IMG/VR virus record: IMGVR_UViG_3300027963_002897
Location: 1 to 62,162 of that record
DNA from: a virus
Taxonomy: Duplodnaviria > Caudoviricetes
Length of the DNA: 62,162 nucleotides
Reading direction: 5' to 3' (one strand)
The stretch's first letter is position 1. Every line of letters starts with the position of its first letter. The translations under genes and the position numbers were made by a program. A model generated the notes under the pieces. The model saw nothing but the letters and a program-made list of their open reading frames with translations, was not told the origin of the DNA and did no database searches. Positions 3,808 through 44,414 of the stretch are shown here, in pieces.

Positions 3808-5418
3808 TTACTCTGTGTCAACCTCGTTAACATAAATTCTACTCTTTAAAAACTCATAATGGCTAGGCATCTTTGCAATCTTTCTTTCCATTACAACTTT
3901 ATTTGCATCTAATCGTTTTTTATAAATGTCGTATGCCTTGTTCATATCGGGATATGTTCTTCCGGCGAATTCTATAAATCTGCGACCGGCAGGTATATAC
4001 CCCATGCCTGCACTGATGTACAATAATCCTGCCAACTCTATTTGGAATTCTCGATCTCCAATTTGTTTGGCAAATTCACTGTAGCCGTCATTCATTGTTT
4101 GATCTAATCCCATTAGCACTTTCGAATAGTGCATGTTTTCTGTAACATGTCGCCAATACTCTGTATCGTTTCTAGACGATAGAGCATAATGCATAGACAC
4201 AAAGTCTTTGTATCCTAGGATTTCTTTTAACGACCTAGCATTGTACACATCAATGTCAAATTGATTCATTGTACAATTTTTCATTTGGAACGTGTCAATT
4301 AATCTTAAAATTGTGTTATGTGTAGTTAACAATCCTGTAGATTCCAACGGCTCAATAAATCCATTTGACAACCCAACAGCAACAACATTCTTGATCCAAG
4401 ATTGTTTATGAACACCATGACGTATTTTGATATGCTTAAAGACCGCAGCATTTGCTCGTTCTTTATTTGGACATATCATACGATCACTGGCAAGGTGTTT
4501 TCTAAATTGTTCTTCGGCTTGCTCTTTTGTAGCAAACTTACTAGAATATACGTATCCTGTGCCAATCCTATTCCACACAGGAATGTTCCATACCCAACCG
4601 TTGTCAATTGCAGTACAATTTGTTACAGATTCAAGTTCTCGTTCTTTATCGATGTATGGAATGTGTGTAGCAATTGCACTGTCATTCATGAGTGTATCAC
4701 TGAACGAAAGGAATTCCGATCCCATAGTTTCTTCAATCAGCATGGCTTTAAATCCTGTACAGTCAATGTACAGATCTGATTTTAATTTACTGCCATTTTT
4801 TGTTAGGATATAGTCTACAGAACCGTCTTCACAAAGAGGAATGTCAACCACATCATCTACAACATGCTTAACTCCTCTTGGCTTACAATAGTGTTCTCTA
4901 AGATAACGTCCAAACAATGCCGCATCAAAATGATAAGCAGTGTCGTATCTAAATCTAAAATTTTTAAGTTCGTTAAATTTATTATCAGTCATTTTGTTGG
5001 CATTGGTCATCCAAACATTTTCGTGATAATATTCAGCAAATGTATTACATTCTATTTCCGGATTCATACCTTTTGCCAAGTACCATTCCATTAATCCAAA
5101 ATCTTTATTGTCTAAAATTAAAGTTCCGAAAGGATAATGAAACGACACCGGCTTTTCTAGACGTTCTCTAAAATCTGTAAATTTAATAGAAGTTTTGTAT
5201 GTGGCATTACAGTGTGTCATCCAGTCGCTATCTTCTAACCCGATAGCATCAAGAAATATATTAAAAGCGGCTAACGTACTTTCGCCAACACCTATAATTC
5301 CTATGTCTTCAGATTCTACTAGTGTAATATCCAAATTTGGCATTTGAGCTATAAGCCCTGCCGCTGTCATCCAGCCGGCACTCCCACCACCTACAATTGT
5401 TATGCTTTTTATTTTCAT
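3808..5418 (-). CDS. tryptophan halogenase family flavin-dependent halogenase
   Basis: GGGSAG FAD motif, GVGEST, ATYK lysine, WVWNIP, FIEPLESTG. Confidence 0.9.
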   Translation of the reverse strand: MKIKSITIVGGGSAGWMTAAGLIAQMPNLDITLVESEDIGIIGVGESTLAAFNIFLDAIGLEDSDWMTHCNATYKTSIKFTDFRERLEKPVSFHYPFGTLILDNKDFGLMEWYLAKGMNPEIECNTFAEYYHENVWMTNANKMTDNKFNELKNFRFRYDTAYHFDAALFGRYLREHYCKPRGVKHVVDDVVDIPLCEDGSVDYILTKNGSKLKSDLYIDCTGFKAMLIEETMGSEFLSFSDTLMNDSAIATHIPYIDKERELESVTNCTAIDNGWVWNIPVWNRIGTGYVYSSKFATKEQAEEQFRKHLASDRMICPNKERANAAVFKHIKIRHGVHKQSWIKNVVAVGLSNGFIEPLESTGLLTTHNTILRLIDTFQMKNCTMNQFDIDVYNARSLKEILGYKDFVSMHYALSSRNDTEYWRHVTENMHYSKVLMGLDQTMNDGYSEFAKQIGDREFQIELAGLLYISAGMGYIPAGRRFIEFAGRTYPDMNKAYDIYKKRLDANKVVMERKIAKMPSHYEFLKSRIYVNEVDTE

Positions 5419-5459: not shown

Positions 5460-5551
5460 TGGTACCAGCGGAGGGGATCGAACCCTCTCAAGAACGCTAA
5501 TCTGGCGCTAAAAGTCTTATAAGGACTCTCTGACTTCCAAGTCTCGCTGGC
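5460..5551 (-). tRNA. atypical tRNA with UAU (Ile) anticodon
   Basis: Acceptor GCCAGCG/CGCTGGT, T arm, loop CTTATAA, tiny D loop, long variable arm, CCA. Confidence 0.7.
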
Positions 5552-6090: not shown

Positions 6091-6144
6091 GACATCTTAT
6101 CACTCTTGTCACTACTCATGACAGATCTCCTTTTAAAAATAAAT

Positions 6145-6224
6145 TGTTGTAGTTTTACCAGTTAAACTATTGTAGCTGATTCTTAGTCTTGACTACAAGC
6201 TGGCTTCGAACCAGCAACACAACA
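6145..6224 (-). ncRNA. circularly permuted tRNA-like RNA (T arm, looped acceptor stem, D arm)
   Basis: TGTTGT-GTT-GCTGG TTCGAAG CCAGC-TTGTAGT-linker-GCTACAA-TA-GTTT AACTGGTA AAAC-T-ACAACA. Confidence 0.65.
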
Positions 6225-6228
6225 TGAT

Positions 6229-6303
6229 TGGTAGCCTATCTTGGGAACGATCCAAGGACCTATGCGTTATCAACACATTGCTCTACCACTGAGCTAATAG
6301 GCT
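6229..6303 (-). tRNA. tRNA-Ile(GAU)
   Basis: Cloverleaf, loop TTGATAA, CCA; T loop ATCGTTC. Confidence 0.9.
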
Positions 6304-6311
6304 ATATTGAA

Positions 6312-6522
6312 TTTGTAAGTAGTGCAACCATCGTTATATGCACCATTCACCCGTGTAATAAACTCGAGCGGGACTCGGTACGTCACTTGGGATTCATCCA
6401 GTCTGCCTCCTTTACAGGCCTCCGCCGTTCCCGGCAGGTGGGAGTTGAACCCAAAACCTTCTACTATACAGTACCTTCGAAGAATACTGAACAGCGTGAC
6501 TTCACTTGCTGACACTTACAAA
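6312..6522 (-). ncRNA. putative ~210-nt multi-hairpin ncRNA
   Basis: Terminal stem TTTGTAAGT/ACTTACAAA, at least six internal hairpins including T-arm-like TGGG TTCAACT CCCA. Confidence 0.6.
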
Positions 6523-6525
6523 ACT

Positions 6526-6615
6526 TGGCGGAAGCGGTGAGATTCGAACTCACGGACCTTTTACAGTCGTCTGTTTTCAAGACAGGTGCAATAAACCGGA
6601 CTCTGCCACACTTCC
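6526..6615 (-). tRNA. tRNA-Ser(UGA)
   Basis: Long variable arm, loop CTTGAAA, G73-CCA. Confidence 0.94.
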
Positions 6616-6621
6616 ATAACT

Positions 6622-6699
6622 TGGTACCCAAGGTCGGACTCGAACCGACACGATTCTCCTTTTGAGAGAGACGCCTCATACCAATTGGGCTACTTGGGC
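6622..6699 (-). tRNA. tRNA-Leu(CAA) with short variable loop
   Basis: Loop CTCAAAA, A73-CCA, 5-nt variable region. Confidence 0.85.
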
Positions 6700-6703
6700 A
6701 TAC

Positions 6704-6860: not shown

Positions 6861-6865
6861 AAAAA

Positions 6866-6982
6866 GGTGCTCGCTGTTGGAATCGAACCAAACTGTTTAA
6901 CTCCGTATCTTCCTGGGGGCATTCACCTTTAGTCGACTTCGGGCTACTTGACACGATCCAGTGTAGTTAAACTTCAGCAAGC
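6866..6982 (-). ncRNA. tRNA-like ncRNA (8-bp acceptor, 4-bp T stem, no D arm)
   Basis: GCTTGCTG/CAGCGAGC-ACC, TTGG TTCGATT CCAA, GTTTAACT/AGTTAAAC stem enclosing ~60 nt. Confidence 0.6.
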
Positions 6983-6987
6983 ATAAT

Positions 6988-18203: not shown

Positions 18204-18922
18204 TTTTTAGCAGCAATAAACTCAGCTTCGGGAATACGTGTATGTGTATTCTTACTGCCTAGCACCACAACAATTCTAGATCCTATATCTGTATCAATCA
18301 TTAACACAATGCAGCCTCCTGAAGCATTAATAAATCCTGTTTTACTAACAACAAAATCGTGACGCTTGCCTATGATGGGATTTGTGTTACGGAATACGAA
18401 CCATTTCTTTCTGATTTTAATCTTAACTTCACTTGTGCGTGAGGCTAACACGATTTCGGGATATTTTGCAGCTTCTAAAACCACTGTGATCAATTCTTTA
18501 GCAGTGCTGACATTCATAACACTTAGTCCGCTAGATTCAACAAAATGAGTTTTTGTTAATCCTAAAGATTCCATCTTGTGATTCATGGCTCTTACACATT
18601 GAGCAGAACCACCGGGATAGTGTTTACATAAATCTAGACTTGCTTGATTATCCGATTTAACTAATGCCAGCTGTATCATCTCGCCACGAGTATATGGCTT
18701 GATGTACTCATCGAGATCTTGTCGAGCATCTAATACCACCATCGCTGTAACAAGTTTAGTAATACTGGCAATGCTACGCTGTTGCGAAACATTTTCACCT
18801 TCTATGATATTACCTTTGGAGTCTGCCACTAACCAACTTTTGGCAGTGACATTTAGAGCAAATACTGAATTACTTAGTAGTAGCCCTAAAAATACCATCC
18901 CAATCTTTTGGAAGTTTAGCAT
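18200..18922 (-). CDS. D-Ala-D-Ala carboxy/endopeptidase (peptidase S11, PBP7-like)
   Basis: Signal peptide, SITK (SxxK), SDN, KTG. Confidence 0.9.
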   Translation of the reverse strand: MLNFQKIGMVFLGLLLSNSVFALNVTAKSWLVADSKGNIIEGENVSQQRSIASITKLVTAMVVLDARQDLDEYIKPYTRGEMIQLALVKSDNQASLDLCKHYPGGSAQCVRAMNHKMESLGLTKTHFVESSGLSVMNVSTAKELITVVLEAAKYPEIVLASRTSEVKIKIRKKWFVFRNTNPIIGKRHDFVVSKTGFINASGGCIVLMIDTDIGSRIVVVLGSKNTHTRIPEAEFIAAKN

Positions 18923-20927
18923 TCTTCATTTCCTCACACCGTTCTATCCATAATTCGTATGAGTGATCCATCTGTCTATCAAAAGAACCCATTAAGTTTT
19001 TACTCATGGTAATTGCTTGATCAAATTTCTGAGCTCTATATGATTGTAACATTTGATTATGGTTTAGTCTAGCTGCCTGATAAGCAGCCATATCTACTCC
19101 GTCTGTGAGTAATGGTGTGTAAATTCGCAAGCCAACTGTTTTACCTTTAACAGCAATGTTGTCTAGCTCTAGTGTAAAGATTTCATCCTTTACAAGTTCA
19201 TTAGTGTTAGGGCCAATAATTAGCAATACACCATATGACTTTGTTTGTCCTTCTAAACGTGCGGCAGTACTTACGCTGTCGCCTAGTACGTCATAGCCAA
19301 ATTTACTCTTGGCTCCAATATTACCAATTAGTGTTTCGCCTGTGTTAACACCTGCGCCCATACCAACTGGAGGTTTACCTTTGGCAGTAAGCTCTTTGTT
19401 AAACTCTTCAATTGCTTTAATCATTTGCTGTGCTGTGCGAACAGCCGTATAAGCATGACGTGGGTCATCTAACGGAGCACCGTGTATGTGTAGGCTGGCA
19501 TCTCCAATAAACTTAATCAATGTGCCATCATTCTTTAGTACAGGAATACTCAACGCTGTCATATAGTCATTCATGATTTGTGTTAGGCCTTCCACATCAT
19601 CGCCAAAACTTTCACCTAGTGTAGTAAAGCCACGTAAGTCAGTCATAACAATTGAAAGTTCTTTACGCTCCCCACCTAATTTAATAAGCTCGGGATTCTT
19701 TTGTAGTCGTTCTACGATAGTGGGATTTACATATGATCCAAATTGCTTTTTAATCTGTTGCTTTTGAAGGAACTCACTTACAAACTTAACCCCGTAGGCA
19801 TGCAAAGCGACCAGGACTGTGCAAACTGCAAAGGCAGTAGCATCAAATAAGAATAAAAAGTTAGTGAAAGCATACTGACTGCCAACAATGCCGCCAACAA
19901 CCAATACAACGACCGACGCAAGTCCAACATAAGTCCACCTTGTTAAAAATAGTAATAATAATCCTGCGGCTAGAATAGCAACAATCTCTAAACCATCTGC
20001 ATAGTCTGGACGTTGTATAACAACTCCGTTAGCCATAGTGGCAATTACACCGGCTTGTACTTCGTGCGGAAAAACAGCCCCTATACTTGTTGGTACCGGA
20101 TTCGCAATGCCGGCAGCAGTGGGCCCTACTACAACAATAGCACCACCAAAGTCTTTTGGTAAATTAGTTAACGATACTGATTTACTCTGCTGACTCCAAT
20201 CAATCCATATACGACCAAGATTGTCTGTATTGATAATTCCAACTTCTCCAGCAAGCCTCATTTTCTCAACACCACCTTCATTAAGTTTAATCTGGAAGGT
20301 ATCGTTGCCTGTGGCAACACGTAATGCCTCTAGTGCCAGTCCAGGATACAGTTTATCATTGACTGCAACGATCAGCGGAACTCGACGATTAACACCATCT
20401 ACTTCTGGGAGTGTGTTCACAATACCAACACCAGCAGCTGATTTTTCTAGTTGTGGTACGTTGGCAATAAGTCCTGGGTATTGTACAATTTGATCCAACC
20501 ACTCCGGACCTAACACAGCACTGCCTGGAACACGCGGTGTATTCTTTGTTTTGTCGCTAGGTACAGATCCTAAAACGACAGGATACTTTTTAAGTATGGC
20601 ACTAAGATCTCCATCTCCACCAGTACGATCGCGCTCAGCCATAAGCACGTTGAGCACAACAAGGCCAGCGTTACGATGATAAAGGTCTTCAATAATTTCA
20701 GCATAGTTAACCCTCGGTAGTGGCCACTGGCCATATTTGTCTAATGCGGCTTCGTCTATGTTGACCGTATAGATGTTGTTCTGAGTGGGGGCTTTGGCTG
20801 TGATCAGTGTGTCAAAGTAGCGTAGTCTTACACTTTCTACAAAGCTAGGATCGGCGATTCTTATACTTATAATAAGTGCCAATGTTAATAGGGCAGTCCA
20901 CGGACTTAGAAGGAGTTTTTTTAGCAT
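18870..20927 (-). CDS. CHASE2-domain class III adenylate/guanylate cyclase
   Basis: IDEAALDKYGQWPLPR (CHASE2), 3 TMs, TDLRGFT, KFIGDA, YDVLGDSVSTAARLE; K/D residues suggest ATP specificity. Confidence 0.92.
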   Translation of the reverse strand: MLKKLLLSPWTALLTLALIISIRIADPSFVESVRLRYFDTLITAKAPTQNNIYTVNIDEAALDKYGQWPLPRVNYAEIIEDLYHRNAGLVVLNVLMAERDRTGGDGDLSAILKKYPVVLGSVPSDKTKNTPRVPGSAVLGPEWLDQIVQYPGLIANVPQLEKSAAGVGIVNTLPEVDGVNRRVPLIVAVNDKLYPGLALEALRVATGNDTFQIKLNEGGVEKMRLAGEVGIINTDNLGRIWIDWSQQSKSVSLTNLPKDFGGAIVVVGPTAAGIANPVPTSIGAVFPHEVQAGVIATMANGVVIQRPDYADGLEIVAILAAGLLLLFLTRWTYVGLASVVVLVVGGIVGSQYAFTNFLFLFDATAFAVCTVLVALHAYGVKFVSEFLQKQQIKKQFGSYVNPTIVERLQKNPELIKLGGERKELSIVMTDLRGFTTLGESFGDDVEGLTQIMNDYMTALSIPVLKNDGTLIKFIGDASLHIHGAPLDDPRHAYTAVRTAQQMIKAIEEFNKELTAKGKPPVGMGAGVNTGETLIGNIGAKSKFGYDVLGDSVSTAARLEGQTKSYGVLLIIGPNTNELVKDEIFTLELDNIAVKGKTVGLRIYTPLLTDGVDMAAYQAARLNHNQMLQSYRAQKFDQAITMSKNLMGSFDRQMDHSYELWIERCEEMKNAKLPKDWDGIFRATTK

Positions 20928-20941
20928 CCGATATTTATCTG

Positions 20942-21649
20942 TTAAAACTTGGTGTAGGACCAACCTGAACCACAAGGGCTGCATTGTATATTCATTCCTG
21001 CCTGATCGGGAGTATATGGATTAGTTTGGTTAACCGTAACTCCTGCTCCTGTTGCACCATTAAACTGTAAATTAAAAACTTTATCGCTGCCTGCTCCGCC
21101 TTGTTGTAATGCTGTAACTGTGTTGCCATTGTTTGTAGCATTGTTTGGATTTGTGACTGTGAATGAGTGTGAGCCTGCACCTTGCTGTGTTATACCTATA
21201 TTATTTCCAGTACCGATCATATTCTGTATACTTGCATTATGATTTCCAGTTCCATCTTGTTGTATGTTAAATGTATTGCTGACTCCGGATTTTAATTCTA
21301 TGCTGGCTGTTTTTGCAGCACCTTGTTGTGTGATTGTAAACGTATTGTAATCAACATCAGAAGTTGTACCGGCTTTGATGGTAGCACTGTTTCCACTACC
21401 ATCTTGCACGATCGTGATGGTATTACTTGATCCTATTTGTTCTATGTCAATGGTATTGTCAGCCGCATATACTCTTCCTGACATTAAAGATATTATAAAA
21501 ATAATAATAAATGGGAATGAAAATAGACCGAAAGCAATTATACATCCTTGTATTATTTGTTTTTTATATAAGGCTTGTTTTTCTGCGTGAAATCTTCGCC
21601 AGTATTCTATTATTCTATCATAATGATCGTCGTATCTTGTTCTGTTCAT
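20942..21649 (-). CDS. curlin-repeat protein (CsgA/CsgB-like) with long N-terminal anchor/signal
   Basis: Repeats IEQIGSSN, IVQDGSGN, IQQDGTGN, ITQQGAG. Confidence 0.7.
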   Translation of the reverse strand: MNRTRYDDHYDRIIEYWRRFHAEKQALYKKQIIQGCIIAFGLFSFPFIIIFIISLMSGRVYAADNTIDIEQIGSSNTITIVQDGSGNSATIKAGTTSDVDYNTFTITQQGAAKTASIELKSGVSNTFNIQQDGTGNHNASIQNMIGTGNNIGITQQGAGSHSFTVTNPNNATNNGNTVTALQQGGAGSDKVFNLQFNGATGAGVTVNQTNPYTPDQAGMNIQCSPCGSGWSYTKF

Positions 21650-22776
21650 TTCTGTATCAGCGTTATAACTGTGCTGCCTCCGCTGTTAACACGATTCTTA
21701 AAGTCTAGTACTCCCTGTGTCATATAAATGGTTGAATTTTGTGTTGTAGGTACTGTTACGATCATGTTATTACTGCCATCGTCACGTGCTAATGTTACTT
21801 TAGGTTCTTGAACATCTACGGTAATACCTGTAATAGCTTGCCAGTCTGGCAATAGCCTATTGCTGGTAGTATTCAACATATTCAATTGTGCTTTCATTTG
21901 CGCATCTAGAATATCTAGGATGTTAGCAAGAAAAGTTTGATCAAGAAAATTTCGAGCCAGCTTGTCTTGGAAAACTTCTTTTTCTTGATCATCTAAGACA
22001 TTAACTAATCCCTGCTCTTTAAGGAAGTCTATGTCTAAGGCAGTTTTCATTTCCATCTTGCCTTGATGTTTATTTTGATGTTGATCGAGTTCTGGTGGCG
22101 GTGCAACAATTAACATATTATTGATGGCACCTTCGCTGAGTTTAAGTATAGCAGGAGGTGTAGGTATTGCACTTCTACTGTCAACTCTGGTGGCTTGGAA
22201 GGGCTTGTTTAGTATGACCTGCCCTGCATCACTTTCTACAGTGATTTCGCCAGTTTTACAGATGGCTTCAATATCCTGTACAGTTCGAGTATTGCGATCA
22301 CTAGGACAGCTAGGTAATAAAATAATTGTGCTACGTCCTAGCTCATCTACTGTGGCAGTGAAATCAGTACCACGAACTGATACCGTGGCACTTGGTGTAT
22401 TGACAGACACTGCCTGTGGACTATTTTTAGCAATCTGTCCAGATGCATAGCGCACGGTGCCTAAAGCCATATTAAGAGCTACTTTACCGGATTTGCTTTT
22501 TGGATCATAGACAAAATCATCAATAACTAATTTTGAATTTTCGTTGACCTGTACTCTGGTCTGATCTTCAAATGTTATTCCGATTTTGCCCTGTGTAGTC
22601 CGTACTGCATCCTGCATCTCCACTCCAGTGCCTTTGACTCCTATCACCTTCTGTGATTTCCTCTCCACAGTCGCGGCTGCGTTCAATTGCTCTGTGATAG
22701 TCCCTATCCCTGCGTAGCTCTGAGATATAGGCAACAACAGCCCGCATAGTAGTAGCGTCCATAATTTAGTCTCCAC
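21646..22776 (-). CDS. secreted FecR-domain protein
   Basis: Signal peptide; D-x-VRT, ITFEDQT, NTPSATVSVRGTDF. Confidence 0.85.
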   Translation of the reverse strand: METKLWTLLLCGLLLPISQSYAGIGTITEQLNAAATVERKSQKVIGVKGTGVEMQDAVRTTQGKIGITFEDQTRVQVNENSKLVIDDFVYDPKSKSGKVALNMALGTVRYASGQIAKNSPQAVSVNTPSATVSVRGTDFTATVDELGRSTIILLPSCPSDRNTRTVQDIEAICKTGEITVESDAGQVILNKPFQATRVDSRSAIPTPPAILKLSEGAINNMLIVAPPPELDQHQNKHQGKMEMKTALDIDFLKEQGLVNVLDDQEKEVFQDKLARNFLDQTFLANILDILDAQMKAQLNMLNTTSNRLLPDWQAITGITVDVQEPKVTLARDDGSNNMIVTVPTTQNSTIYMTQGVLDFKNRVNSGGSTVITLIQK

Positions 22777-22785
22777 AGTGTGCCT

Positions 22786-23694
22786 TTATCGTGACGGTAA
22801 TGTTAACAATGGAACCAGTGCACCTTGACTAACATTAACGCTGTTACCACTGCCGTTAATCTTAATCTTAGCTTCTTGCCCTGTACCGGATGATCCTTGA
22901 TTGACTCCGATAAAGTTAGTGTCTCCTGTAATTCCTAAACTGATACTGTTATTGTTACCGTTTTGTACAAGTTGTATTTGGTTGTCATTACCAGCCAATG
23001 TTGACCCACTGGTATATCCGCCAATAGTAATACCGTTACCTGTGCCAGTTTGTTCTATGCCAAATATATTACCATATCCGCTGGTGCTGATACCGATGGT
23101 ATTACTATCACCGGTAGTTGAGATAGTAGTTGAGTTACTACCAACTGTTCCGGATTTCGTAATGTTTTGTATGTTATCATCACCTGCTATAGTAGAAATA
23201 ACACTGTCACCGTCGCCTGAAGTAGTAACAGATACTTCGTTACGAGCACCAGTTACACGAGATTGCAGGACAGTACTGTTACCACTTTGTGTTATGTCTA
23301 TTAGGTTACTTGCGCCGCTGTTTTTAATGAATGCTTGTGCGCTGTCACCGGTTATATTATAATTGATAGTGGTATTACGTTGTCCAGATTCTGTCGATCC
23401 AGCAGACTGCAGAGAAAGGGTATTCCCCGAACCAACTTGATTAATCTGTAGTTGTGTATTATCACCGGATACTGTGGCGGCATCAACTCCGCGAACACCC
23501 GGTGCATTGTTTACTATGCCTTTGACTGTGTTACCTGCACCATCTTGGGTGATATTAACTACAGCATTATCACCACTTTGATCAATGTAGATACTGTTGT
23601 CAACGGCATGGCCCAGTGATGGCATCGCAGCCAACACCAGAATTGTGAGTAATTTTCTCGACAACCCACCAGCGCCTTTGATTCTTGTTTTCAT
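22786..23694 (-). CDS. curlin-repeat protein (CsgA-like)
   Basis: Signal peptide; about ten I-x-Q-x-G-x-x-N repeats; G/N/S/T rich. Confidence 0.75.
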   Translation of the reverse strand: MKTRIKGAGGLSRKLLTILVLAAMPSLGHAVDNSIYIDQSGDNAVVNITQDGAGNTVKGIVNNAPGVRGVDAATVSGDNTQLQINQVGSGNTLSLQSAGSTESGQRNTTINYNITGDSAQAFIKNSGASNLIDITQSGNSTVLQSRVTGARNEVSVTTSGDGDSVISTIAGDDNIQNITKSGTVGSNSTTISTTGDSNTIGISTSGYGNIFGIEQTGTGNGITIGGYTSGSTLAGNDNQIQLVQNGNNNSISLGITGDTNFIGVNQGSSGTGQEAKIKINGSGNSVNVSQGALVPLLTLPSR

Positions 23695-23858
23695 TTATTT
23701 TCATTATTAGGATAATAAATTCCTAATGTCGCTCCTGTTTTTATGTTATGTTTCCTTTTTAATTCCTTTCTCTCATTTAAAAAGCATTCTCTGCTTAAAA
23801 TATTTACTGAGGTAACAGCAATCATTATGCTCCGCTGTTATTTTTCCGTTACTATAAG

Positions 23859-23891
23859 GTGTAAAAAAATTAACAGTGTAAAAAATTAACA
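23859..23891. repeat. tandem imperfect 16-17 bp repeat GTGTAAAAAA(A)TTAACA
   Basis: Two adjacent copies between csgG and the curlin gene, flanked by inverted TAAGGTGT/ACACCTTA. Confidence 0.7.
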
Positions 23892-23893
23892 CC

Positions 23894-25123
23894 TTATTTC
23901 ACTTCCTCTAAATGTTCTGCGCGGACCCACCCGCCTCGTTTCTCACTGTCTGTCACTCTTAACCAACCTTCGCTGCCTGGTTGAATTACATTTACCATGG
24001 TGCCTTTCTTAAACTGCCAAGTTTTTTGACTCTTCTCATCTGGCTCTTTGTAAATGTACTGTGCTTCTGTTAATCTACGTTGTCCAAATAAAGGTCTAGG
24101 TTCTATTTTTTCTTCAACGGCCTTACTTTCTCTTTTGTTTCCTTCATCAGCCTTTCTGCTGTTGGACTCAGTCGCCGATCTTGTGGGTACGGGACTTGGC
24201 TGGGCGGCAACTGCTTGGGGGGTTTGATTTTGAACCACGACATCTTTCTTTTCCTCCACTTTTATTTCACTGCTGATAACCGGTGCTTTTGGTTCTATTT
24301 TTGATATTACCACAGCCACAGGAGTATCTACTTTATATTCCCATATACCTTTGGTTACACCTTCTTTAATCAATTCGACCACTGCCATTTCCACAGCGGC
24401 TTTTACTGCGTAGGTTCCGGGCTCATTGATAGTCAATCCTGCTTCTGCTTCAAATGCCTGTGTGCCTGCATCAAAAAACTTCAATGCTGTGGCACTGTCA
24501 GATGTGCTTAGGATAGTCTTTTGTACTGTAACTGTGGCCAGTACTTTACCTGTGTTTACACTAACAGCACGTAGGCTAACTGTGACTGTATCCTGGCTCC
24601 ATTGTGTCTGTTTACCTATGCCAAATATACGCATACCAGCACCACCGCTGGTAGTTGTTGTATCATAGCCAACCAATCCACCTTCTAAGATCATACCAGC
24701 AAACTGCATGGGCATCAAGGGTTTGGCATTGGCTCCTTCATAGGCTTCACGCATCTGGCGAATGATAGTACGCTCTTTAGTTAGGTTATCAATACCCACA
24801 CGCTCTACTACTTCGAACCAACGACCTCGGCCAACATTCTGGAGTGCCTGTATTAGGAATGTTTCTGCACCTTGTGTAACTGCTGTTGATAAACTGGCCA
24901 CGTTAGCCTGTGGACGTCTTTGACCTGTTTTGTCAGCAAAACTGTATACTGCTACACTGATAGGTTTACCAGCAGACGGTGCCTGTATCTCGTCAAATTC
25001 TTTCTTGACTGCTTTTCTCTGCGTTGTCAGTGTTGGATCTGTTTCATTCAACCCGGTGCTTTGGATTATGGCACATCCGCTCAACATTGAAACTATCACG
25101 AGTGTTAGTAGAGTCTTTTTCAT
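23894..25123 (-). CDS. csgG: curli secretion channel CsgG/HfaB with C-terminal SH3b-like domain
   Basis: Lipobox LSGC; VAVYSFADKTGQR, STAVTQGA, ER-x-G-x-DNLTKER, NEP; SH3-like tail GWLRV...GGWV. Confidence 0.9.
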   Translation of the reverse strand: MKKTLLTLVIVSMLSGCAIIQSTGLNETDPTLTTQRKAVKKEFDEIQAPSAGKPISVAVYSFADKTGQRRPQANVASLSTAVTQGAETFLIQALQNVGRGRWFEVVERVGIDNLTKERTIIRQMREAYEGANAKPLMPMQFAGMILEGGLVGYDTTTTSGGAGMRIFGIGKQTQWSQDTVTVSLRAVSVNTGKVLATVTVQKTILSTSDSATALKFFDAGTQAFEAEAGLTINEPGTYAVKAAVEMAVVELIKEGVTKGIWEYKVDTPVAVVISKIEPKAPVISSEIKVEEKKDVVVQNQTPQAVAAQPSPVPTRSATESNSRKADEGNKRESKAVEEKIEPRPLFGQRRLTEAQYIYKEPDEKSQKTWQFKKGTMVNVIQPGSEGWLRVTDSEKRGGWVRAEHLEEVK

Positions 25124-29239: not shown

Positions 29240-31141
29240 TTAGTCTGCTTTCTTCTCTGTGAATGTAGCGTCAACTATGTCATCTTGTGGCTGAGGTTGT
29301 GCTTCTGCTTGTGCTTCTGCTTGTTCCTTAGCCTGTTTTTTATCTAACAATGCTTTCATTGCTGGATAAACTTTTGCAAGCTCTTCTGTAATCTTTTCAG
29401 CATCATCACCTTTGGAGGCTTCTTCTACTGAAGCGATTGCAGTTTCAAGCTCGGTAATTTCTGTTTCTGTTAGTTCAGAACGGAACTCTTCAAGATCCTT
29501 TCTAACTTCGTGTAATTGAGAATCGGCTTGGTTGCGTGTTTCGATAAGAGTACGTTGTTTCTTATCTGATTCCGCATTGGCTTCTGCATCACGAATCATA
29601 GCTTGGATTTCATCGTCACTTAAACCACTGTTAGATTTAATAGTGATCTTGTTTTCCTTGCCTGTGTTTTTATCTTTAGCACTAATGTGCATGATTCCGT
29701 TAGCATCGATATCAAATGTAACTTCAATCTGAGGCTGTCCTCTACGTGCTGGAGCAATACCGTCTAGTTTAAATTCACCTAACAGTTTATTGTACTGCAC
29801 AAGCTCACGCTCGCCTTGGAACACTTTAATGTCCACTGCTGGTTGATTGTCTTCAGCAGTACTAAATGTCTGGCTAGCCTTAGTTGGGATAGTTGTATTC
29901 TTTTGAATCAACTTGGCCATTACGCCACCCATTGTTTCGATACCAACGCTTAGTGGTGTAACATCTAACAACAGTACGTCTTTGCGATCACCACCTAACA
30001 CTGCACCTTGTACTGCGGCACCTGCGGCAACTGCTTCGTCTGGGTTAACATCCTTACGTGGTGCTTTACCAAATAACTTCTCTACAGTTTCCTGTACCTT
30101 AGGCATACGTGTCATACCACCAACAAGGATAACTTCGTCAATGTCTACGGCAGTCACTTTAGCATCTGCCATTGCTGTCTTACATGGCCCAACACTTCGT
30201 TGAATTAATTCGTCAACTAACTGTTCTAGTTTGCTGCGATTTAATTTTACTGCTAGGTGTTTTGGTCCACTTGCGTCTGCTGTAATATATGGCAGGTTAA
30301 CATCTGTTTGGCTTGAACTAGATAACTCAATCTTAGCCTTTTCAGCACTATCTTTCAAACGCTGTAATGCCAATACATCTTTGCTTAGATCAATACCTGA
30401 TTCTTTCTTAAATTCATCAATCAAGTGATCCATAATACGTTGGTCGAAATCTTCACCGCCGAGGAATGTGTCACCATTGGTAGAGAGAACCTCAATTTGC
30501 TTCTCACCGTCCACGTTAGCAATTTCAATGATAGATACATCAAAAGTACCACCACCAAGGTCATACACAGCCACTTTACGATCTGTTTTGTCATTTTTAT
30601 CTACTCCGTATGCTAATGCAGCCGCAGTAGGTTCATTGATAATACGTAAAACTTCTAAGCCTGCAATCTTACCTGCATCCTTAGTCGCCTGACGTTGGCT
30701 GTCGTTGAAGTAAGCTGGTACTGTAATAACAGCTTGTGTTACTTCTTCTCCCAAATAGTCTTCAGCAGTCTTTTTCATCTTACGAAGGACTTCAGCAGAA
30801 ATTTGTGGAGGTGCTAAATCTTTGTTATTTGCTTTTACCCAAGCATCGCCGTTTTCAGCTTCAACAATTTGATAAGGCATCAAGTCGATGTCTTTTTGCA
30901 CAGCTTCTTCTTTGAACTTACGTCCAATAAGACGCTTGCTTGCGTAAATTGTATTTGTGGGATTTGTTACTGCTTGACGCTTTGCTGTTGCACCAACTAA
31001 AATTTCATTGTCAGTATATGCAACAATACTAGGAGTAGTCCTTGCGCCTTCTGAGTTTTCAATTACTTTAGCTTTACCATTTTCGATAACAGCTACACAT
31101 GAGTTTGTGGTACCCAAGTCGATACCGATGATCTTAGACAT
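29240..31141 (-). CDS. dnaK: chaperone DnaK
   Basis: [27 protein letters not shown]; full length. Confidence 0.98.
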
Positions 31142-43808: not shown

Positions 43809-43879
43809 TTTTAATTCCTTTTATAATAATGACTTAACGTCATTAAACAGTATATAGCGTATTGCTGATAAAAGTCAAG

Positions 43880-43906
43880 AAAAAGCGGCATTTTAAGCCG
43901 CTTTTT
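43880..43906 (-). terminator. terminator of the tmRNA gene
   Basis: AAAAAGCGGC-loop-GCCGCTTTTT. Confidence 0.8.
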
Positions 43907-44190
43907 GGTGGTTTCTGTTACGAGGTATATCCTACCCTAAGCAGTGTTTAGGCTGCTAATGCGTATTCGCTTGAGTTTGCGTTTACTTGTTTTACGCTGA
44001 TAACGTCAGTCGTCTCTCGTGTTGCCGTCTCTACTATCTACCCCTGTCGAAACCATGGCAGGCCCATTATGAAGTATACTCACGTTTCTGATGTCTCTGT
44101 TGGCTATGTGCCAACCGAATATACTTTATGGTGGACCTGGCGGGAGTCGAACCCGCGTCCAGAAGTCCTTCGCTTTGAAGGGATTACAAC
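43907..44190 (-). ncRNA. ssrA: two-piece (circularly permuted) tmRNA
   Basis: Acceptor piece with T arm and CAGGTCC-ACCA (ends 44129) precedes coding piece GGGCCTG (starts 44065); G3-U70; tag ANSSEYALAA* at 43948-43980. Confidence 0.9.
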
Positions 44191-44210
44191 AATTCTTTTA
44201 TTTAACCAAC

Positions 44211-44414
44211 TTACGCTGGATAAATGTTTGCAGCCTGCTTGCCTTTGGGGCCTTGCACAACTTCAAAACTTACGTTTTGATTTTCTTGCAAGACTTTAAA
44301 ACCTGAAGTCTGAATTGCAGAGTAATGAGCAAATAAATCCTCACCACCTTCGTCTGGAGTAATAAACCCAAAACCTTTGGTTTCATTAAACCATTTTACT
44401 TTACCTGTTGCCAT
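44211..44414 (-). CDS. cold shock protein
   Basis: [21 protein letters not shown]. Confidence 0.95.

Follow-up and report, generated by a model that had tools for sequence, protein, structure and literature searches.

What do the 222 nucleotides (nt) that separate two transfer RNA (tRNA) genes in a phage tRNA array encode, and what could such an element do there? The locus belongs to the IMG/VR virus record IMGVR_UViG_3300027963_002897, which we analyzed over its whole length of 62,162 bases (hereafter the window). The record is judged 18% complete and is therefore a piece of a very large phage; its minus strand carries all 23 tRNA genes, a permuted transfer-messenger RNA (tmRNA) and all long open reading frames (ORFs) but two. 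A preliminary description, made from this sequence, had proposed a structured non-coding RNA of an undescribed class between tRNA-Ser and tRNA-Ile, and covariation in 115 loci now supports that proposal. We consider it likely that the element is the gene of a stable structured RNA of about 220 nt, released by tRNA processing, with self-pairing loops, a mimic of the tRNA elbow and an RNA-based mode of assembly. The element and its two neighbors, which are the tRNAs named at the outset, are placed as follows.

6526–6615, minus strand: upstream tRNA-Ser(tga), whose CCA end touches the element (ARAGORN and Rfam).
6304–6525, minus strand: the whole RNA, 222 nt, bounded by two tRNAs; element index 1 is window position 6525.
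6229–6303, minus strand: downstream tRNA-Ile(gat) (ARAGORN and Rfam).

The helices first named are minus-strand letters, on the same strand as all 23 tRNAs. The spacer, which had been called GC-richer, is so to some extent, with a G+C content of 0.45–0.50 versus about 0.31–0.42 in coding DNA beyond the tRNA array. The other tRNAs of the array are spaced 2–6 nt apart, with no such element between them. A covariance model of the family, R1, matches window positions 6303–6527 with 226.6 bits, and the record holds a single copy.

Covariation and the fold of the element

The single-sequence fold has a minimum free energy of −67.4 kcal/mol (z = −1.80 against dinucleotide shuffles, of which 5/200 fold as well), and the plus strand does about equally well (z = −1.86). 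Given this marginal energy and the lack of an Rfam match, the single sequence could not decide the matter: it proves nothing by itself, and the support for a structure comes from relatives. These were gathered by successive pattern scans of viral contigs and confirmed with nhmmer. The first pattern, built on the T-loop-like hairpin, retrieved three viral contigs in which a near-identical element stood beside different tRNAs, and nhmmer brought the total to 115 loci and 87 distinct sequences, all but one locus being on viral contigs. R1 was built from 79 full-length sequences with a hand-made structure, and 88 matches were then aligned to it.

In this 88-row alignment, standard pairs fill 95.1% of 3532 pair cells, compared with 81.0% in shuffles (0/500 reach the observed value), and sliding the partners by 1–3 columns lowers the figure to 32.5–46.7%. 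Changes on both sides are seen in 31 of the 42 pairs (421 cells), the covariation score is 0.354 versus 0.119, and a MAFFT alignment, which is not fitted to the structure, returns the same pairs. Helices P1, P2, P2a, P3, P4, P8 and P9 are supported by covariation. The parts of the RNA, all on the minus strand, are listed here in 5′ to 3′ order.

6514–6522, minus strand: P1, 5′ strand UUUGUAAGU of the closing stem; 9 pairs, 8 changed on both sides, 98.9% of cells paired.
6510–6513, minus strand: P2, 5′ strand GUCA; 99.7% paired, 2 of 4 pairs changed on both sides.
6501–6509, minus strand: purine-rich junction between P2 and P2a, GCAAGUGAA, nearly invariant columns.
6498–6500, minus strand: P2a, 5′ strand GUC; 99.6% paired.
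6463–6495, minus strand: P3, long hairpin with an internal loop; 11 of 12 pairs changed on both sides, its two helices 94.9% and 80.4% paired.
6475–6482, minus strand: P3 apex L3, palindrome CUUCGAAG, a self-complementary loop.
6439–6453, minus strand: P4, T-arm-like hairpin UGGG-UUCAACU-CCCA; outer pair CG in 39 rows, UA in 30, AU in 5, GC in 4.
6422–6437, minus strand: P5, GGAA-capped hairpin, optional in the family (single-sequence folds).
6405–6419, minus strand: P6, short hairpin with the loop GUAAAGG, which ends in GG (single-sequence folds).
6396–6398, minus strand: P2a, 3′ strand GAU, from covariation (previously placed in a GGA-TGAA-TCC hairpin).
6386–6395, minus strand: junction between P2a and P2, GAAUCCCAAG, highly conserved columns.
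6382–6385, minus strand: P2, 3′ strand UGAC, from covariation, within the near-invariant block CCCAAGUGACGUACC.
6373–6381, minus strand: junction between P2 and P8, GUACCGAGU.
6350–6372, minus strand: P8, stem CCCG/CGGG closing a 15-nt loop; 98.2% paired, two pairs changed on both sides in 17 and 15 rows.
6363–6368, minus strand: L8, palindrome CUCGAG directly 3′ of the P8 5′ strand, a self-complementary loop.
6345–6349, minus strand: junction between P8 and P9, UGAAU, nearly invariant (conserved columns).
6321–6344, minus strand: P9, hairpin GGUGCA/UGCACU with the conserved loop UAUAACGAUGGU; 96.4% paired, three pairs changed on both sides in 38, 40 and 12 rows.
6312–6320, minus strand: P1, 3′ strand ACUUACAAA; with its partner, helix 1 of the 88-row alignment.
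6304–6311, minus strand: 3′ tail UUCAAUAU, conserved and single-stranded, which is also the 5′ leader of the next tRNA (conservation, context).

Covariation shows two domains, which P1 and P2 close. In the 5′ domain, a multi-helix junction holds the long hairpin P3, the T-arm-like P4, the optional GNRA hairpin P5 and the GG-loop hairpin P6, and the 3′ domain consists of the hairpins P8 and P9 joined by nearly invariant junctions. One sub-family has a wholly different, longer P1 that is still paired. Within P2a, one pair reads GC in 43 rows, GU in 31 and AU in 10, and the next UA in 70 and AU in 13. The junctions flanking P2a exist in two coupled versions: one position of 6501–6509 changes jointly with one in 6386–6395 (UA in 22 rows, AU in 51). 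The stretch with P5 and P6 varies in length, and these two hairpins were counted from single-sequence folds. Of 72 distinct segments, 45 have P5; 30 different stem strands occur among them, and 36 of the 45 loops are GNRA. Several relatives lack P5; a P6-like later hairpin with GG in its loop is found in 51 of the 72, on 20 different stems. A pseudoknot between ACCG of the junction 6373–6381 and UGGU of the P9 loop is weakly supported as a possibility, since the two are 97.2% paired but change on both sides in just 1 and 3 rows.

Eight helices had been named at the start. Six are kept with compensatory changes in the 88 rows: the 9-bp terminal stem (8 of its 9 pairs changed on both sides), CAGTA/TACTG as part of a longer hairpin, the T-loop-like hairpin TGGG-TTCAACT-CCCA, the hairpin GCCG-GGAA-CGGC, GCCT/AGGC and GTGCA/TGCAC. 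The other two, the GTCAC/GTGAC helix and the GGA-TGAA-TCC hairpin, fell away: none of their 8 pairs changes on both sides, they are paired at 92.8%, exactly as when shuffled (92.8%, reached by 500/500 shuffles), and their variable columns leave 11, 14, 3 and 15 rows unpaired. Covariation offers better partners for these strands, GUCA (6510–6513) with UGAC (6382–6385) and GUC (6498–6500) with GAU (6396–6398).

The same stretch could in principle be read as protein, because the minus-strand ORF 6294–6515 is open in the window for 73 codons and would encode a 73-residue product. In only 7 of 79 relatives does this frame stay open for at least 73 codons, most closing it after 7–30; the relatives' lengths are spread evenly over the modulo-3 classes (22, 29 and 28), and the changes in the helices are compensatory. 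The coding-type conservation that the preliminary description had named as a point to check is thus absent, the reading is refuted by frame closure in relatives, and we regard its probability as practically nil.

The element also appears to be new. A match to a described Rfam family had been set beforehand as evidence against an undescribed class, and no family of Rfam 15, ROOL included, reaches its gathering score on the element; at E values up to 10, the only hits on it are tRNA-Sec (15.5 bits, gathering score 47) and sX4 (14.5 bits). Neither ARAGORN nor Rfam finds a tRNA between 6304 and 6525, where there is just a T-arm-like hairpin. Membership of the tRNA cloverleaf family (RF00005) was rejected, and an intron-bearing or permuted tRNA was ruled out by the absence of an acceptor pairing. 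BLAST of the element against 50,697 deposited phage records returned only matches of 26–29 nt (E ≥ 0.2), and a longer query with the flanks matched through tRNAs only. We found no description of the family in the literature; the part of PMC10690425 consulted reports 8,495 unnamed candidates from IMG/VR, and its supplements might list this one. Phage tRNA islands are known to hold structured RNAs, and the element is of that kind, with a sequence, a size and an architecture that are new.

Self-complementary loops and probable pairing between copies

The preliminary description had missed that two loops of this RNA are covarying palindromes. The start of the P8 loop, L8, is a palindrome of 6–8 nt in 85 of 86 rows, with 12 different palindromes at this one place, whereas on average 19% of shuffled P8 loops, and at most 29%, contain such a palindrome at any position. 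The outer pair of the L8 hexamer is changed on both sides in 46 rows and the second pair in 40. At the P3 apex, the longest palindrome that 76 of 85 rows contain is a UUCGAA core, and the substitutes found there include other palindromes: the core UGGCCA in 3 rows, UGCGCA in 1 row, and UCUAGA in L017. The closing pair of this apex is CG in 65 rows and GC in 16.

According to the part of Kretsch et al. 2025 (PMC12286853) consulted, covarying loop palindromes are evidence for intermolecular pairs, as symmetric kissing loops, in OLE and GOLLD. Bases that adjoin one another in a chain cannot form a pair, and the palindromes are kept despite sequence change; from this we infer pairing with the same loops of other copies. 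L3 and L8 thus probably pair between RNA copies. With two self-complementary loops, a dimer could be held twice, or rings or larger closed bodies could form; the working form of the RNA would in that case be a symmetric dimer or a closed oligomer.

A monomeric structured RNA that binds a protein or a small ligand would explain part of these observations. The junctions around P2 and between P8 and P9 are nearly invariant, which would suit a binding pocket or contact with a protein, the P3 apex shows little variation, and the palindromes could serve a protein that binds symmetrically, or an alternative fold. Such a protein would nevertheless be expected to hold its site to one sequence, not to 12 palindromes at one place, and the adjacent bases of a loop have no partner within one chain. 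We therefore view a monomer as unlikely.

Within the P8 loop, positions 6359 and 6362 (minus strand), which have 2 nt between them, also covary (UA in 45 rows, CG in 33), a coupling that no ordinary pair explains.

Genomic context, RNA libraries and possible role

The carriers of the element, many of them large freshwater phages, include phages of 162 to 367 kb that CheckV judges 94–100% complete, and the five large records (252–367 kb) searched with the model hold exactly one copy each. At least three tRNAs lie within 3 kb at 112 of the 115 loci (median 14), and the element shares its strand with 2059 of the 2060 tRNAs of these loci. An upstream tRNA ends at most 3 nt away at 67 of 104 assessable loci, and a downstream tRNA begins at most 4 nt away at 70 of 107. 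The adjoining tRNAs are of at least 16 kinds; since these neighbors differ so widely, the element is an independent module that is tied to no single tRNA. At least two short contigs of metagenome-assembled genomes carry it at their ends (nhmmer, among 120 listed 15-mer matches), which says nothing about hosts. The metagenome scan used a single fixed-spacing pattern and gave 1 locus, so that the metagenome collection is in effect unsearched. The neighboring 207-residue protein, used as a query for related loci, returned no relative.

Could the element simply punctuate a polycistronic tRNA transcript, as a processing spacer with no role of its own? It does touch tRNAs on both sides. The other tRNAs of the array manage with 2–6 nt and no such element, a 220-nt fold with invariant junctions is kept beside tRNAs of at least 16 kinds, the element is present once per genome, and it appears abundant in RNA libraries. 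We hold a mere spacer to be highly improbable.

The library data come from metatranscriptomes. Six runs share words with the element stretch, and contigs on the element were found in all four runs examined, from four studies; three of these contigs cover 133–151 nt with 0–1 differences. In run X17, the summed depth is about 150,000 over 6359–6377, in the conserved core, 12–27 at 6606–6700 and 0 at 6150–6244, zero-depth bins beside the element being no evidence of absence. The data hint at an abundant RNA but do not prove it.

We suppose that the RNA is transcribed from the minus strand with the tRNA array and that, as the preliminary description had also proposed, ordinary tRNA processing would release it: its 5′ end would be set by the 3′ maturation of the upstream tRNA, and its 3′ end by RNase P cutting at the 5′ end of the downstream tRNA. 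Its fold has tRNA-like parts too. UUCRANN is the T-loop pattern, which the P4 loop follows in 75 of 86 rows, and the GG at the end of the P6 loop recalls the D loop of a tRNA. Rows with other P4 loops (CGUGAUU, CGCAAUA, CGCGAAU) have the P6 stretch replaced by an A-rich segment without such a hairpin. By analogy with tRNA, the P4 T-loop and the P6 GG loop would probably dock to form a mimic of the tRNA elbow. As suspected for GOLLD and ROOL, one may guess that an RNA-based assembly meets the tRNA-handling machinery during infection.

A bolder proposal is that the RNA assembles by itself into a machine of two-fold symmetry acting on tRNAs. Each copy would bear a tRNA-elbow mimic and an RNase-P-like junction, and during infection the assembly, held by kissing loops, would process tRNAs, shelter them or decoy them; the RNA would be a small, tractable functional cousin of GOLLD and ROOL and possibly a new ribozyme. 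We rate this as quite improbable. A related suggestion, to which we attach a very small probability, is that the element acts on the tRNAs of the array as a ribozyme or a tRNA-docking RNA whose design is akin to that of RNase P RNA. By eye, three short words of the element resemble E. coli rnpB: a purine-rich junction and then AAGUC lead into a long-range helix that lies just within P1 and P2, a hairpin comes after GGGUGAA-GG, and the order P1–P2–junction–P2a recalls the RNase P core; the location within a tRNA array would suit such a role. Against this, the RNase P models in Rfam have no match on the element (E up to 10) or in the loci of 16 relatives (E up to 1), nor does RF00010 match in the record, the order of its parts differs from that of RNase P, and the likeness amounts to a few short words. 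Membership of the RNase P RNA family was rejected for want of a model match.

Several points weigh against our preferred reading of an RNA gene with self-pairing loops and a tRNA-elbow mimic. The single-sequence fold energy is not significant (z = −1.8), the 88-row alignment was fitted to the structure of the model, which favors that structure, and its rows are related, so that the cells counted do not each stand for a separate event. Of the 83 rows with letters at the aligned columns of the P3 apex, 81 read UUCGAA, so that the palindromic character of this apex depends on few changes (5 rows with three alternative palindromes), and the L024 row has UUCAAA, which is not a palindrome. The proposed dimer is drawn from sequence patterns only, the docking of the T-loop with the GG loop and the steps of processing come from general knowledge of tRNAs, and the functional proposal is a guess. 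The library data are contigs that give neither ends nor strand, DNA can be present in RNA libraries, and the depth sums relatives, so that its peak follows conservation.

Other features of the element's relatives and of the window deserve mention. L138 (4522–4714, minus strand) and L146 carry a divergent second copy (56.4 bits) about 0.8 kb upstream of the first in the same array; the L138 copy keeps P1, the T arm, the ACGUACC block and the P8-loop palindrome. In six loci (L061, L099, L132, L139, L138 and L146), ARAGORN calls tRNAs with a CTA anticodon, labelled tRNA-Pyl, directly beside the element. They resemble amber suppressors and hint at TAG recoding in some of these phages.

The window's own tRNA array holds a second conserved RNA of about 125 nt (6861–6987, minus strand), with an acceptor-like stem GCUUGCU/AGCGAGC that shows compensatory changes, a T arm and a long insert holding GUCGAC. 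It occurs at 7 loci with 75–95% identity; ARAGORN calls a tRNA at 0 of the 7, and Rfam returns nothing at E values up to 10. In the 138-nt spacer at 6091–6228 (minus strand), a T-arm hairpin, a capped acceptor-like stem and a D-like hairpin can be drawn by eye, in permuted order. Conservation in relatives is seen only over its last ~50 nt, and its fold is no better than that of shuffles; the conserved end contains a Shine-Dalgarno-like word and a 12-codon ORF running into tRNA-Lys. At 5460–5551 (minus strand), ARAGORN reports a 92-nt tRNA-Ile(tat) with the anticodon at position 31, where the Rfam tRNA model has no match.

Further afield, the phage-encoded permuted, two-piece tmRNA (43857–44242, minus strand; tag ANSSEYALAA) scores best with the betaproteobacterial type (154.4 bits) and the permuted type (141.3 bits), and a permuted two-piece tmRNA is also present in the relatives L138 and L026. 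A tryptophan-halogenase-like gene lies within the tRNA array (3808–5418, minus strand), which is unusual cargo. A cargo cluster at 18870–25123 (minus strand) comprises a CHASE2-cyclase, a FecR-like gene, a curlin-repeat gene and CsgG, and a full-length Hsp70/DnaK gene is found at 29240–31141 (minus strand).

Comparison with GOLLD, ROOL and other RNAs

The preliminary description had mentioned GOLLD and ROOL for comparison. The comparison is apt as an analogy and does not extend to membership, as neither model matches. GOLLD (RF02032), like the element, is a structured RNA of phage tRNA arrays without a known function, and many of these phages come from lakes. Its solved form is a 14-mer cage with symmetric kissing loops of covarying palindromes, and L8 of the element bears the same signature, known here from sequence alone. 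The two differ in helix plan and share no similarity of sequence or model, and they differ in size: the Rfam model of GOLLD has 416 positions and the RNAs exceed 800 nt, versus about 220 nt for the element (for the kissing loops and the length above 800 nt, PMC12286853 in the part consulted). With 150 bits or more asked of a member, the GOLLD model gives no match on the element at E values up to 10. Nor does it match anywhere in the window, although the record is cut inside the tRNA array; it fires at 199–214 bits elsewhere in related loci, so the test works.

GOLLD and the element are often found close together. GOLLD lies ~100 nt upstream of the element in L080 (227–691) and L068 (5575–6039), with a tRNA embedded in GOLLD in both, and ~720 nt upstream in L017 (6034–6499), with three tRNAs between. 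It is 0.1–1.8 kb from the element, on either side, in four of the five large records, and is found in 4 of 50 further records, mostly fragments. Six records are at least 90% complete; both RNAs occur in three of them, and the element without GOLLD in the other three. This proximity, in the large records, in L080, L068 and L017 and in the 4 further records, could suggest that the element is an accessory or partner of GOLLD, as a detachable domain or an assembly co-factor. The variable gene order, the tRNAs that intervene in L017, the three near-complete records and the window itself without GOLLD, and the failure of any part of the element to score against the GOLLD model all speak against it. 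A domain of GOLLD was rejected on the variable order and the intervening tRNAs, and we give the partnership as a whole very little credence. The element and GOLLD are separate genes that often share an array.

ROOL has been described from other habitats. It is an RNA of phages or prophages that lies close to tRNA islands and assembles into an RNA-only oligomer (PMC12286853, in the part consulted), and the element, which sits in the same kind of array, is much smaller and has no Rfam match to it.

The species 1 and species 2 RNAs of phage T4 (rnaC and rnaD) are small stable RNAs without known function that directly follow a tRNA in a phage tRNA cluster, and rnaC ends in a T-arm-like hairpin. 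They measure 139 and 119 nt and no palindromic loops were seen in them. Homology was rejected: with its filters off, R1 scores at most 7.5 bits over T4 70.5–72.7 kb, at T-arm-like hairpins.

Y RNA and YrlA combine a closing stem made of both ends with a tRNA-like module that has a T arm. The element has such a closing stem and a T-arm-like hairpin, and could on these grounds be a bacterial-type Y RNA, a YrlA-like tRNA mimic bound by Ro/Rsr; a weak YrlA-like match also occurs elsewhere in one related array (L070, 831–898; 33.4 bits, gathering score 69). The element is twice the size and has an extra 3′ domain, neither YrlA (RF02553) nor Y RNA matches it, and a TROVE-domain protein is found in 0 of the 5 large records, 4 of them at least 94% complete, while control genomes respond. 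A phage-encoded Ro is thereby largely refuted, and a Y RNA of this type seems to us extremely improbable.

The loops of phi29 pRNA pair with a different loop of the next copy and are not palindromes; this phage RNA is part of the packaging motor and is not known from tRNA arrays. Like the self-pairing proposed for the element, it multimerizes through loop–loop pairing (PMC4201828, in the part consulted); it was compared with the element via Rfam only.

The most useful lead is the self-pairing loop signature. The small size of the RNA suits native gels, chemical probing, crystallography, cryo-EM and mutational tests of pairing, and a clear alignment with many compensatory changes is already in hand. 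If mimicry of the tRNA elbow is true, it may point to a cellular partner. Present as one copy per genome in phages of 160–370 kb, the element appears abundant in freshwater RNA libraries. GOLLD and ROOL of phage tRNA islands were recently shown to build RNA-only cages whose purpose is not known; the element occupies the same niche, often in the same array, and carries the same signature of copy-to-copy pairing at only ~220 nt. If its assembly is true, it would be a simple system in which to ask why self-assembling RNAs are placed next to tRNAs in phages.

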